This document shows positions 39,001 through 45,000 of a DNA stretch of 48,288 nucleotides, one piece after another (the stretch's first letter is position 1; every line of letters begins with the position of its first letter). Position numbers: made by a program. Origin of the DNA: a virus (taxonomy: Duplodnaviria; Heunggongvirae; Uroviricota; Caudoviricetes); the IMG/VR virus record IMGVR_UViG_2923307698_000006; one strand, given 5' to 3'.

Positions 39001-42000
39001 GGAGTGTGCTCATCGCTGCGTGATTCAGGTTCGTCAGCATTCCGACACTACGCATCGAAGCCGTTCTGCGGTCGACTATCTGGTTCAGCGTGACCTGCTC
39101 GTTGCGCGTATCCCGCTGCATGCCAATTTCATCAAGGACCAGAAGGTCAACTCCACAAAGCTCCTGTAAAAATTTTTCCCCGGACTGGCCGTTGTCGTAG
39201 CCGTCATGCAACACGCTCATGACATCGGACACGGTGACGATAATCACGCTTCTCCCCTTCGCCATCAGCCGATTGCCAATCGCTGCTGCCAGGTGATTTT
39301 TACCGGTACCAGGTTTACCGCTGAACACGAAGTTTGTACATCCGGTCATCAATTCATCGGCAATGGATTTCGCCTGGCTCAGAGCATGGCGCTGACCGTC
39401 GTTCTGCACCCGGTAGTTCCCGAATGAGCACTTCCTGTGAAGCGGCTGGATGCCCGCACGGTTCAGGATTTTTTCAACCCGCACCTGATGATTCAGGCGG
39501 TTAATCTCCTCGCTGCGTTTTCGTCCTTCAGCAAGTTGCCATTCCCGCCACTCCTCCACCGTCCGGTACGGTGGAACCGCCCCCTGTGGTGCAAGTCTGC
39601 GAATACGTTCAAGAACCCCAACTGCCGCAATGTTTTTCATGACACGTCACCCCCTGAATCCCGGCGGTATTTCAGTGTCCGGTTCAGAAATGTGATTCAC
39701 GCAACGCTGCGCAGGCGAACGCCCCAGGCGGATAACCAGTTCATCCCATTTTTCCCGGAGTTTTGCCGGACTCATGATGTTTTTTACCCAGAACGAATCC
39801 CGCTGGAGACGCCCAAACATTTCACAAATTTGTCTGTGAGTTCTGCCATCCAGCATCCGCATTGTGCGAACGTCATTGGCCCATGCTGTCCAGTTGGGTT
39901 CTTTCGGTCTAGTGATCTCGCCATCATCGCTGGCCGCCTGCTCGTAAAGACTCACGATTCGTCCCCAGATCCACTGTGCGCACACCAAATCTTCCTGACT
40001 TCCCCACTGGCGTTTTTTCGCACTGAACACAACCGCGTCAGGGTGTCGGGTTAAAAAATCCTGTTCAGCCGTCTGCGGGTCCGGTTGCGAAGCGTCCGGA
40101 CAAGAAGATCTTTTATCTGACGGATCAGGTTTTAATACTGACGGATCGGGGTCAATCATCGCCCCCCTAATCGGCAGTTTTTTATCAACAGTTGATCCAT
40201 CAAAATTTGACGGGTCAACCGTTGAGGGGTCAATATTTGACGGGTCAACTGTTAACGGGTCATTTTTTGCCGGGCTAATTTTTCTTTTCGGTTTATATGA
40301 CTCACGCGCCGCCGCCGCAGCTGCTTCGAGTTTTTCCACATTAAGCCGATAGATATTGCTTACATTACGCCCACCGACCTTACGCTCTTCCTTCGTCAGC
40401 CAGCCCTCTTTCGCCAGTTCTGCAATAGCCGATTTCACTGTGGATTCACTTCTTGCACCGATCTGACGCCGGATAGTTTCAATGGCAGGCCATGACACGC
40501 CCTCGTCATTGCTGTAGTCTGCAAGACGGGCCATAACCGCCACCCTGGATAAGATCATGCCGGTGAAGGCGCACCCTTCCCAGACAAGACCATGAAGCTT
40601 GCTGCTCATAAAACCCCCGAACACCGTGCTTTTAGTGCATCACCACAGCATTCCCTGCCGGGCCGCCGCGATTCATCTGGTCATACAAAACAACCGCTGA
40701 CGCAACAAAATCATCGACATCCTTCACCAGCCGATCCCTCCGTTCGACGATCTCACGGTAATATTCAGAACTGTGGCTGCGCATACGGGCCACCAGCAAA
40801 GGCGGCATCGCCTTTTCGATCGCCGGTAACAGAGCCTGCATTTTTTCAACAGCATCAGGGGTGTCTTTATCCAGCCAACGGAAAATTTTCTGGGTATTAC
40901 GGGCCAGGGCTTCCGGATGGCTGTCGTCGTACAGTTCAGGGAACGTCATCCCCAGTTCGAAATAAGTCCGGGCTATTTCAGCTGCAGGAACTTTCTCACC
41001 ATCAGGGTATGCCCAGGCATTCATCGCCATGCGGATGTGCTCATGTTTGATTTTCATGAATCATTTGCCTCTTGATGCTTCGGGTATGATCGTTTTCGTC
41101 ATTTGGTTGCTTCATCGACATATTCTGCGAATAACATGACGAGCGTCGTAAGTATGTCCAATCAACATCAGGACGAAGTTCTTCACACAGAACACCACCT
41201 TTTGTTGCTCGTTCAATCGCAGGACATCTCTCAGCAGGTAACTGACGTACACCTTTGATCCATTGATTTACGCTTGGAGGAGATACACCTAAAAGCCTAG
41301 CCATTGCTGATTGCCCACCGACAACAGCACAAGCTCGTTTGAATGAATAGTTATCTTTTTTCATCGAATGAACTCCAAAAAACACGCAACAATATTAGGC
41401 TTAGCCTAATGAAATTGTCAATAGGCTATGCCTAATACATCGAGAGTAGGGATTGCCTAACGCGATGCGCATAGGAGACTATTAAGCAATGCTTAGTGGT
41501 AAAGACTTAGGCCGAGCGATAGAGCAGGCCATTAACAAAAAAATTGCATCAGGAGCCGTCAAATCAAAGGCGGAAATCGCACGTCATTTCAAAGTCCAAC
41601 CACCATCAATCCATGACTGGATTAAGAAAGGTTCGATAAGTAAAGACAAACTTCCAGAACTATGGCGTTTCTTTTCTGATGTGGTTGGTCCAGAGCATTG
41701 GGGGCTTAACGAATACCCCATACCAACCCCATCCACTTCAGATACAAAAAGTGAACTTTTAGACATAAACAGCCTTTATCAAGCCGCCTCTGATGAAAAA
41801 AGAGCAATTGTGGCTTTCATCTTATCTGGAAATGCTACGGAGCCTAGTTGGGTTGATCATGACGTTCGCGCCTACATTGCCGCAATGGAAATGAAGGTAG
41901 CTAACTATCTGAAAAATCAAGAATCAAAACGGAAAAGCCAGAACATCACCAAGACAGGAACTTAAACTTATATGGTCCGACGGGAAATTCCTAGTTCCCG

Positions 42001-45000
42001 TTAGTTAACTCCTACTACCTCTTCCACAAACCATCACCTATTAGGTTGCGCCCAAATTATTAGGCATAGCCTATTGACAAGTAATTAGGCATTTCCTATA
42101 GTTTTCCCATACCAACCCATCCCGTCCCACACAATACAGGGCAATACCTCGAGTTACCAGGCAGTGGTCACGGGTTAAGTAGCCAGCCCGAGGCGTAAGA
42201 ACATGACGGCAGGGTTCAACTTTAATAACTATGCAGCAGGTTTTTGTTCCGCTACCCCGGCGTTAAGGGGAAATGAGGTCAGCATGGATACTATCGATCT
42301 TGGCAACAGCGAATCTCTGGTATGTGGCGTGTTCCCCAACCAGTACGGTACGTTCACCGCAATGACGTATACCAAAAGCAAAACGTTTAAAACCGAATCT
42401 GGAGCGCGTCGCTGGCTGGAAAGAAATTCAGGTGGGTGATATGGATTTCGACACAATCATGGAAAAGGCTTACGAAGAATACTTCGAAGGCCTTGCCGAA
42501 GGCGAAGAAGCTCACAGCTTCAACGAATTTAAACAGGTGCTTTCCAGTTCGGCAAAATCTAATGGCTGATAAGCGAAACAGCACCGCGAGGAATCAGTAT
42601 GCAGAAACGAGAACCCGTCATCATCGCGCCAGACTATACCAATGATGAACTTTATGAGTGGATGCACCAGAAAATTAATGCAGCGCAGGATCTGAAATGG
42701 GCTAATGAAGTCAGGGCTAAGCAGGCTGAAAATCTGTCCTCTCTGGAGCAGGATATCACCAATCTGGAAAAAGCAGCGGCATTAACCATTGCCAGAATGA
42801 TTACATACCCGCGTTAATAGCTAACCAACGAAGCTAAGGTTGGTAATTAAGGAGTTCTCCACGGGTGAGGTGGAGTGCTTGCGCCGGACACGGGTGAGCA
42901 TCCGGCACTGACAGTTTACTGAAAGGATATTTCCCTGAAAAGTCAGACCATAACGCGAAAGCGCACGGCGAGGTAGCTGGTTCATAGATAGCCTGTCGTT
43001 AAATTTTCGTCGACCGTGCGCTTCCGGTTGTGGCAATCCGCGAAATGGCGCGGCGGTAAGTATGGCGGGGTTATTCCTTCCCCCGTTGAGGACACCGGGT
43101 TGTCAGGTTGACCATACGCTTAAGTGACAACCCCGCTGCAACGCCCTCTGTTATCAATTTTCTGGTGACGTTTGGCGGTATCAGTTTTACTCCGTGACTG
43201 CTCTGCCGCCCTTTTTAAAGTGAATTTTGTGATGCGGTGAATGCGGCTAAGCGCACGCGGAACAGTTAAAACCAAAAACAGTGTTATGGGTGGATTCTCT
43301 GTATCCGGCGTTAATTGTTAACTGGTTAACGTCACCTGGAGGCACCAGGCACTGCATCACAAAATTCATTGTTGAGGACGCGATAATGGAAACGTTATTA
43401 CCAAACGTTAATACGTCTGAAGGTTGTTTTGAAATTGGTGTCACTATCAGTAACCCTGTATTTACTGAAGATGCCATTAACAAGAGAAAACACGAACGGG
43501 AGCTATTAAATAAAATATGCATTCTTTCAATGCTGGCCCGTTTACGTCCGATACAAAAAGGATGCTGGCAATGAATACAGCATTTGCACTTGTTCTGACA
43601 GTTTTTCTTGTTTCCGGAGAGCCAGTTGATATTGCAGTCAGTGTTCACAGGACAATGCAGGAGTGTGTAACTGCAGCAACCGAACAGAAAATTCCCGGTA
43701 ACTGTTACCCGGTCGATAAAGTTATTCACCAGGATAATAACGAAATCCCGGCAGGTCTTTAAAACAGTTCCGTAATAAACATCCGATTTCATTCTTATAT
43801 GCCAGCAATGGCAGGGATTTGTTCACCCTTAAATCTGTAATGAGGTAAAACAAAATGAGTAAAGTCTTTATTTGCGCCGCCATTCCGGACGAACAGGCAA
43901 TAAAGGAAGAAGGTGCAGTCGCTGTAGCCACAGCTATTGAAGCTGGCGACGAACGCCGTGCTCGAGCAAAATTTCACTGGCAATTCCTGGAACATTATCC
44001 GGCTGCTCAGGACTGCGCTTATAAATTTATTATCTGCGAGGATAAACCTGGCATACCCCGCCCTGCCCTCGATTCATGGGATGCTGAATATATGCAGGAA
44101 AACCGCTGGGATGAGGAGTCTGCTTCCTTTGTTCCGGTTGAGACTGAATCAGATCCGATGAACGTCACTTTTGACAAGCTGGCCCCTGAAGTACAGAACG
44201 CTGTCATGGTTAAGTTCGACACATGTGAAAACATCACCGTTGATATGGTTATTAGCGCACAGGAATTGTTGCAGGAAGACATGGCAACATTCGACGGACA
44301 TATCGTTGAAGCGTTGATGAAAATGCCAGAAGTTAACGCCATGTATCCGGAGCTTAAGCTGCATGCCATCGGGTGGGTTAAGCATAAATGTAAGCCTGGT
44401 GCCAAATGGCCCGAAATTCAGGCAGAGATGCGCATCTGGAAAAAACGTCGCGAAGGTGAACGCAAGGAAACCGGAAAATACACGTCTGTTGTTGATCTCG
44501 CCCGCGCCAGAACCAATCAACAGCACACTGAAAATTCAACAGGAAAAATCAGCCCGGTCATTGCTGCCATTCATCGCGAATACAAGCAGACATGGAAAAC
44601 ACTGGATGACGAACTGGCCTACGCTCTCTGGCCTGGTGATGTGGATGCCGGAAACATTGACGGCAGCATCCATCGCTGGGCAAAAAATGAAGTTATCGAC
44701 AACGACCGCGAAGACTGGAAGCGTATCTCGGCATCAATGCGCAAACAGCCTGATGCCCTTCGCTACGACCGCCAGACTATTTTTGGCCTTGTCCGTGAAC
44801 GTCCGATCGACATTCACAAAGACCCTGTGGCACTGAACAAATACATTACTGAATACCTGACTACAAAGGGCGTGTTTGAAGATGAAGGAACAAATCAGAG
44901 CGCAACTGATACTCTCTCGTCGCCAGTACCAGAAACTGATGCAGTGGAAACGGCAATTCCGGACAACGAAAAAACCGAATGCAAAGTGGAAGTCGAACCA

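Follow-up and report, generated by a model that had tools for sequence, protein, structure and literature searches.

A probable RacR immunity switch preceding a Qin-type dicBF operon in a Rac-type lambdoid prophage

The 48,288-nt virus record IMGVR_UViG_2923307698_000006 (Caudoviricetes), the whole of which is referred to here as the window, contains a gene for a homologue of RacR, the repressor of the Escherichia coli K-12 prophage Rac, with a cluster of palindromic operators on either side. Very probably, this region serves a Rac-type lambdoid prophage as its immunity (lysis/lysogeny) switch, in which RacR silences both the early-right operon (ydaS-ydaT) and the early-left operon, here a Qin-type dicBF operon (ydfA-ydfB-ydfC-dicF-dicB). 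The system is already known and conserved and is found here in a frequent mosaic form, i.e., it is no new kind of system. One element, the operator pair downstream of racR, appears to be undescribed; it is strongly conserved and constitutes a predictable analogue of the left operators (OL) of lambda, of dicBp in Qin, and of the early-left promoter (PL) of prophage CP-933P.

Operators and promoters on the two sides of racR

The repressor gene racR (41489-41965, plus strand) encodes a protein of 158 amino acids with a DNA-binding N-terminal domain (approximately residues 1-73), a linker, and a helical C-terminal domain. It matches the NCBIfam equivalog NF049929 with 246.3 bits (cutoff 200) over residues 1-145 and is 91% identical to K-12 RacR, in agreement with the first-pass annotation of this DNA, which had described a RacR-like repressor flanked by two operator clusters with a common palindrome. 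The core TAGGCNNNGCCTA (TAGGC-N3-GCCTA) matches the window exactly at three positions (41396, 41422, and 42061), where shuffled sequences predict 0.02. At most one mismatch adds the positions 41447 and 42086, and all five matches fall within the two clusters on either side of the repressor gene, the remaining 47.6 kb of the window having no core site at zero or one mismatch. The palindrome itself had been worded as TTAGGC(A/T)TAGCCTA. The motif is real, but this wording fits just 41395-41408 and 42060-42073, and the correct form is the published (A/T)TAGGC-N3-GCCTA(A/T), in which the 3-nt centre is free.

Four sites occupy the racR-ydaS region. OR1 (right operator 1; 41396-41408; TAGGCTTAGCCTA, no mismatches), with the K-12 offset of -93 relative to the racR ATG, overlaps the -10 box of the early-right promoter (PR) by 2 nt, and OR2 (41422-41434; TAGGCTATGCCTA, no mismatches) adjoins its -35 box. 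OR3 (41447-41459; TAGGGATTGCCTA, one mismatch) is the site at offset -42/-41 that is kept in nearly all homologous loci. OR4 (41483-41495; TAAGCAATGCTTA, two mismatches; offset -6) is centred on the racR ATG and is likely an autorepression site of racR. The three upstream copies reported earlier correspond to OR1, OR2, and OR3, but the fourth, over the start codon, had been overlooked. The racR-ydaS spacer thus carries the inverted repeats expected of a RacR-type immunity region, at 41396, 41422, 41447, and 41483, one of them over the ATG. Downstream of racR, OL2 (42061-42073; TAGGCATAGCCTA, no mismatches) adjoins the -35 box of PL, and OL1 (42086-42098; TAGGCATTTCCTA, one mismatch) spans the PL spacer and the first 2 nt of its -10 box. 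Operator centres are 26, 25, and 36 bp apart in the upstream cluster and 25 bp apart in the downstream one, and OL and OR are separated by about 0.65 kb.

Both clusters overlap promoters, one divergent and one outward, so that the OR/OL-type layout suggested for this region holds. A promoter scan recovered the near-consensus sigma-70 promoter that had been reported to overlap the downstream sites, i.e., PL, the equivalent of dicBp (42074-42102, plus strand; TTGACA, 17 nt, TATAGT; 11/12 consensus positions). The same scan revealed its mirror image, which had been missed: the PR-type promoter of ydaS-ydaT on the minus strand (41421..41392; 10/12), with the -35 box TTGACA (41421-41416), a spacer of 18 nt, and the -10 box TAATAT (41397-41392). 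The two promoters are built alike, in that the -35 box is adjoined by operator 2 and the -10 box is entered by two bases of operator 1, and they are linked by a perfect 23-nt inverted repeat comprising operator 2 and the -35 box (41415-41437 and 42058-42080). Judging by its position relative to K-12, the hexamer GAGACT (41475-41480, plus strand), the counterpart of GAGAAT in the leaderless K-12 promoter PracR3, is probably the racR promoter -10 box of the present allele.

The upstream half of this arrangement agrees with experimental data from K-12 Rac. Three GCCTAA/TTAGGC repeats were described in the 123-bp racR-ydaS spacer, and RacR was bound there in electrophoretic mobility shift assays and in chromatin immunoprecipitation (PMC5700373). 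DNase I footprinting defined the half-site ATTAGGC and operators of the form (T/A)TAGGC-n3-GCCTA(T/A), the n3 of one operator overlapping the racR ATG, and the promoter PydaST (TTGACA, 18 bp, TAATAT) was established by primer extension and mutagenesis of its -10 box, the leaderless PracR3 being mapped and mutated as well (PMC9638921).

Conservation of the modules and the Rac-Qin joint

A genome scan with RacR yielded 12 loci, including those from Mixta, Proteus, Klebsiella, Achromobacter, and metagenome bins at 57-78% identity, and a scan of viral contigs with the exact 17-mer ATTAGGCNNNGCCTAAT yielded 120 contigs. A RacR homologue stands beside ATTAGGCNNNGCCTAAT in 92/120 contigs; the remainder mostly contain one isolated site, and a few are cases at a contig end. 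The comparison set comprised 107 loci with RacR homologues (54-100% identity) from Escherichia, Mixta, Proteus, Achromobacter, and metagenome bins. In the 65 distinct upstream regions, the sites are located at fixed offsets, and the site over the ATG is found in 64 of them. The module OL2-TTGAC-OL1 is present downstream in 95/107 loci, always at a 25-bp spacing of the two operators, and the 12 loci without it mostly break off at a contig end. Between repressor gene and module lie about 100 bp to 2.3 kb of DNA.

Among 49 distinct downstream sequences, the half-sites of both operators and the -35 box (TTGAC) approach 2 bits of information, whereas the 3-nt centres are variable and the flanks unrelated. 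Fixation of the half-sites and of the -35 box against drifting centres and flanks argues that the cassette of repressor, operators, and promoter is functional on both sides of the gene. Within the DNA-binding half of the repressor, residues 39-73 are nearly invariant across genera in an alignment of ten representative homologues. Eight loci from Achromobacter and related viral contigs (loci L012, L014, L050, L056, L073, L075, L078, and L090) encode short single-domain RacR homologues that align over the first ~77-82 residues. There, the upstream sites are unchanged, and OL2-TTGACA-OL1 is situated 0.9-2.3 kb downstream with other genes between. Since these eight loci keep the layout, the C-terminal domain of RacR is dispensable for it.

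K-12 Rac has the same architecture. Its operator offsets (-93, -67, -42, and -6) and half-sites are identical to those in the window, its PR reads TTGACA-18-TAATAT, its leader of about 170 nt is the same, and TAGGCATAGCCTA-TTGACA-N5-ATTAGGCATTACCTATAGT (OL2-TTGACA-OL1-TATAGT) is situated some 100 bp past the racR stop codon, before ydaG-ydaF, with kilR farther downstream. Presence of the downstream module in K-12 Rac indicates that the architecture is native to Rac and is not a product of fusion with Qin. The differences concern the genes behind PL (ydaG-ydaF-(sieB)-kilR in K-12 versus ydfABC-dicF-dicB in the window), single bases in the operator centres and in the racR -10 box, and YdaT, which is only 31% identical.

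The operon behind PL lies on one strand and has the Qin order ydfA-ydfB-ydfC-dicF-dicB, as the first-pass annotation had it. The genes ydfA (42284-42439; Pfam DUF1391), ydfB (42441-42569), and ydfC (42599-42817), all on the plus strand, follow the RefSeq annotation of an identical 3-kb stretch. The DicF small RNA with its terminator hairpin (43160-43211, plus strand) scores 76.7 bits against Rfam RF00039 (gathering score 48), and dicB (43386-43574, plus strand), encoding a cell-division inhibitor of 62 amino acids, matches Pfam PF05358 (1.7e-37) and NCBIfam NF049927. The DicF terminator is thus located between PL and dicB, and beyond dicB the early-left operon continues with an exonuclease gene followed by xis and int.

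In alignments with K-12 Rac, Qin, and other alleles, the window is of the Rac type through racR, the operators, PL, and the ~170-nt leader up to a 26-nt box, GTTCCGCTACCCCGGCGTTAAGGGGA (42246-42271), and of the Qin type beyond, where it aligns with Qin DNA from 42246 on. The box, common to Rac, Qin, and the present prophage, includes the ribosome-binding site for the gene that comes first behind PL, and it resembles a recombination linker joining modules. On the other side of the switch, YdaS is Rac-like (85% identity to its K-12 counterpart) but YdaT is not. Together with the switch to Qin downstream, this indicates that the racR-operator-ydaS block behaves as an exchangeable immunity cassette. 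The succession of RacR and ydfABC-dicF-dicB is ordinary mosaicism.

Qin resembles the window in the content and order of the operon (ydfA, ydfB, ydfC, dicF, dicB, and a DUF1482 gene) and in having a repressor gene followed by an outward promoter under operators, where the genes from ydfA to dicB are transcribed from dicBp under repression by the resident DicA (PMC10448788). On the other hand, DicA is unrelated to RacR, the Qin operator words are of the TTAGC/TTAGT…CTAA types, and the homology begins only at 42246, past the promoter and the leader. The repressor in the window is not of the DicA type, as BLASTP of RacR against DicA gave no alignment at E≤100 and the operator words differ.

The combination of a Rac repressor with a Qin operon, which the first-pass annotation had implied to be unusual, is in fact common. 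The 725-bp module spanning the operators and racR is present in 1085/5426 complete E. coli genomes, and the whole stretch from ydaT to dicB in at least 208 of them, the identical 3-kb stretch being annotated alike in numerous genomes, E. coli O103:H2 12009 among them. Among the ~32 informative viral contigs, i.e., those with a close RacR and sufficient downstream DNA, ~23 carry dicB, ~6 carry kilR, and 2-3 carry neither, so that dicB behind RacR is the commonest arrangement in the sampled contigs. Variants of the same layout occur in enterotoxigenic E. coli and in bloodstream isolates. The related prophages of O103:H2 and O157:H7 adjoin potC. The potC-side prophage of O157:H7 SS52 (locus L016) retains racR, both operator clusters, and a DUF1391 gene; ydfC, dicF, and dicB are gone and its exonuclease gene is truncated, making it a decayed form of the same early-left operon.

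Control of the two early operons and alternative explanations

In the proposed mechanism, RacR dimers would recognise the palindrome on both sides of racR. At OR1 and OR2, RacR would occlude RNA polymerase at the strong promoter PR and keep ydaS (the Cro analogue) and ydaT (the CII analogue) off. The racR promoters are covered by OR3 and OR4, the latter at the start of the leaderless racR mRNA, and RacR bound there would limit its own synthesis. The second operator-promoter cassette, ~100 bp past the racR stop codon, faces away from racR; judging by the sequence of its sites, RacR would also occupy OL1 and OL2, block polymerase at PL, and leave ydfA-ydfB-ydfC-dicF-dicB silent. The PL transcript would start near 42109. 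Loss of RacR would release both promoters, yielding YdaS and YdaT from PR and, from PL, DicF RNA and DicB, with a block of cell division. The earlier proposal that a Rac-type repressor governs a Qin-type dicB operon is thus supported by the identity of RacR, the sites, PL, and the gene order, with RacR binding downstream as its predicted component.

This mechanism is consistent with published expression data. When RacR is lowered in K-12, ydaF, ydaG, ydaE, and racC rise ~40-fold, and kilR, ydaC, and ralA more than 70-fold (PMC6765115, PMC11014345). The RacR regulon, including the 'ydaFG' operon, has been called not characterised in detail (PMC11014345). A RacR operator pair over a near-consensus PL would explain the 40-70-fold rise of ydaG, ydaF, and kilR. 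If the mechanism operates in the present prophage as well, DicF and DicB are predicted to answer to RacR, not to DicA, in ~4% of complete E. coli genomes, including O103:H2 Shiga-toxin strains. DicF copies under different repressors would then respond to different signals, which is relevant to prophage small RNAs in pathogenic E. coli.

The switch has well-studied parallels. Operator centres in lambda are spaced by 23-24 bp, and its OL and OR are separated by 2.4 kb; the spacing in the window (25-26 bp for OR1-OR3 and OL) is close to the former, whereas the OL-OR separation differs. Lambda shares with the window the divergent repressor and cro genes, the multiple 17-bp palindromic operators with operators 1 and 2 over PR and PL, and a leaderless repressor mRNA (PMC9638921). 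In contrast, there is no sequence similarity, the window has four upstream sites and not three, RacR lacks the S24 self-cleavage domain, and racR was reported not to be a target of repression by YdaS (PMC9638921). Prophage CP-933P of O157:H7 also has a right arm of the YdaS/YdaT type and a PL under repressor and Cro-like control, its PL hexamers being equal to those of its PR and accompanied by OL1-3, as tested with reporters; unlike the window, it uses PaaR2 as repressor, the gene of which goes together with a toxin-antitoxin pair, and operator repeats of the GTTTAGTAA type (PMC8630535).

While RacR would act like CI at its operators, it stands outside the CI/LexA-like family. No Pfam family matched the whole protein at E≤0.01, and hence no S24 peptidase domain was detected; among solved structures, no significant sequence match was obtained, a HigA-type helix-turn-helix protein (E 1.4) being the closest relevant one. 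Membership among the SOS-cleavable repressors of the lambda CI/LexA type is thereby rejected, and induction by the cleavage route of lambda CI would be unlikely. Prediction of the RacR structure from the single sequence was poor (mean predicted local distance difference test score 51), with an all-helical secondary structure.

A further-reaching picture can be drawn only tentatively. In it, OL1 and OL2 would be a genuine, uncharacterised second set of RacR operators, RacR would loop the DNA over 0.65 kb by means of its C-terminal domain as lambda CI does, DicF and DicB of pathogenic E. coli would be controlled by RacR directly, and a single portable cassette, nearly constant from Enterobacterales to Achromobacter, would comprise the DNA-binding domain, the operators, and both promoters. 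We regard this whole as possible and rather doubtful.

Several observations weigh against control of both operons by RacR. Firstly, the searchable RacR literature yielded no experiment on RacR binding at the downstream sites, in the present allele or in K-12. Secondly, OL1 is imperfect, with TCCTA in place of GCCTA. Thirdly, of the three downstream copies reported earlier, OL2 and OL1 stand, but the third, a doubtful 'OL3' (42042-42054; TAGGTTGCGCCCA, two mismatches), is a half-site and not a real palindrome; only its left half ATTAGGT is retained, in Escherichia alleles only, where the right half is variable, and the site is absent from other genera. Fourthly, under the search criteria used, no OL module was detected in three divergent loci for which 3 kb of DNA downstream was available. 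Fifthly, the presumed recognition helix has H42 in the present RacR and Y42 in K-12. Finally, silencing of kilR in K-12 Rac also needs Rho and NusG (PMC4150792, PMC5793797), and hence repression at PL need not be the sole control.

The last point is the basis for an alternative in which dicF-dicB is controlled mainly by other means, i.e., by Rho/NusG-dependent termination in the leader or by read-through from racR, the role of RacR at OL being minor. The leader of the PL transcript (42103-42283, plus strand, ~175 nt), a Rac-type sequence ending in the box GTTCCGCTACCCCGGCGTTAAGGGGA, indeed opens with a C-rich, G-poor, weakly folding tract, and the DicF terminator precedes dicB. We nevertheless consider this explanation unlikely: PL is close to consensus and has two strong operators next to and over it, the plus strand from PL to dicB showed no further promoter-like site, and control by Rho and control by operators are not mutually exclusive.

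The sites might instead be primarily operators of the Cro-like YdaS, with RacR acting elsewhere or indirectly. Cro-type proteins bind the repressor's region in lambda and CP-933P (PMC8630535), and YdaS was reported to autorepress (PMC9638921). But it is RacR itself that footprints the ATTAGGC repeats in K-12 (PMC9638921), and the motif tracks the RacR N-terminal domain in loci where the identity of YdaS drops to 51-69%, which makes this version very improbable; the two proteins likely share the sites, which would not conflict with a RacR switch. We give as little credence to a change of operator specificity in the present RacR allele, which is 91% identical to K-12 RacR, such that the K-12 binding data could not be transferred. 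The substitution at position 42 of the presumed recognition helix and the different operator centres of the two alleles would fit it, whereas the half-sites are identical in both alleles, and distant homologues with unchanged half-sites have either H or Y at this position. Least credible is the view of the downstream cluster as a dead copy of the PR cassette that arose by recombination and neither binds repressor nor fires: the cluster is a near-duplicate of the PR module, joined to it by the perfect 23-nt inverted repeat, and RacR binding there is a prediction, but retention of the half-sites, the -35 box, and the 25-bp spacing in 49 distinct sequences from several genera, with drifting centres and flanks, points to selection and not decay, and the early-left genes of K-12 respond 40-70-fold to a fall of RacR (PMC6765115, PMC11014345).

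Flanking genes, transcript features, and prophage context

The RacR switch is bordered on the right-operon side by two genes on the minus strand, which stand behind TTGACA-18-TAATAT and diverge from racR, as in other RacR-type regions. The cro-like gene ydaS (41041-41364), encoding 107 amino acids, matches Pfam PF15943 YdaS_toxin (3.8e-30), P22_Cro (1e-8), and HTH_3. The ydaT-like gene (40632-41057), an analogue of lambda CII of 141 amino acids, matches Pfam PF06254 YdaT_toxin (E 2.8e-10) and is labelled 'toxin YdaT family protein' in RefSeq. A YdaT-box, ATGATT-CATGAA-AATCAA (41047-41064, minus strand), overlaps the 3' end of ydaS as well as the start codon of ydaT. It has one mismatch against TTGATT-N6-AATCAA and is identical to the reference repeat ATGATT-n6-AATCAA of Rac YdaT (PMC11879457), and it presumably has the same function here. 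A possible -10 box, TATGAT (plus strand, 41084-41089), lies 20 nt downstream of the YdaT-box; the two would together make a CII/PRE-like promoter directed back at racR, comparable to PracR4 of K-12 (PMC11879457).

An off-target box of the Csp231I C protein (CTAAG-N5-CTTAA, minus strand) is retained at 41482-41496. In K-12, binding of the C protein to this box reduces RacR and is lethal (PMC9638921); with the box retained, the prophage should share the sensitivity to the same cross-talk.

The PL leader had no match in Rfam at E≤1, DicF being the sole match in that search, and its folding is no stabler than that of shuffled sequence (z +1.03). Both results speak against a structured RNA or a known element. 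A hairpin, ACGGGAA/TTCCCGT (41980-42001, plus strand), follows the racR stop codon; it has no T-run and is not called an intrinsic terminator. Its retention between alleles through a paired change from G-C to A-T points to a conserved element, either an RNA 3'-end or a stability element.

The 13-nt sequence CCCATACCAACCC occurs twice as an exact direct repeat: at 41717-41729, where it encodes the PIPTP linker of RacR, and at 42106-42118, where the PL leader begins. Similar C-rich words are found in K-12 Rac at the two positions, and the alleles differ identically in both copies (CATCC versus CACC). The window contains no complementary partner of CCCATACCAACCC. The copies are possibly Rho-loading tracts or a recombination scar.

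The right-hand part of the window (33508-48288) is 99.94% identical to E. coli O103:H2 12009, and the annotation of that record was applied to this part only. The structural genes in the left part (1-33507) are 85-96% identical to the same strain, with gaps. The window as a whole is thereby ruled out as the O103:H2 12009 prophage and comes from a different, though related, mosaic prophage. Other small RNAs that score above the Rfam gathering threshold are STnc490 (14259-14382, minus strand), AgvB (anti-GcvB; 30121-30182, plus strand), STnc100 (30184-30376, minus strand), and sok of a hok/sok pair (36581-36755, minus strand).

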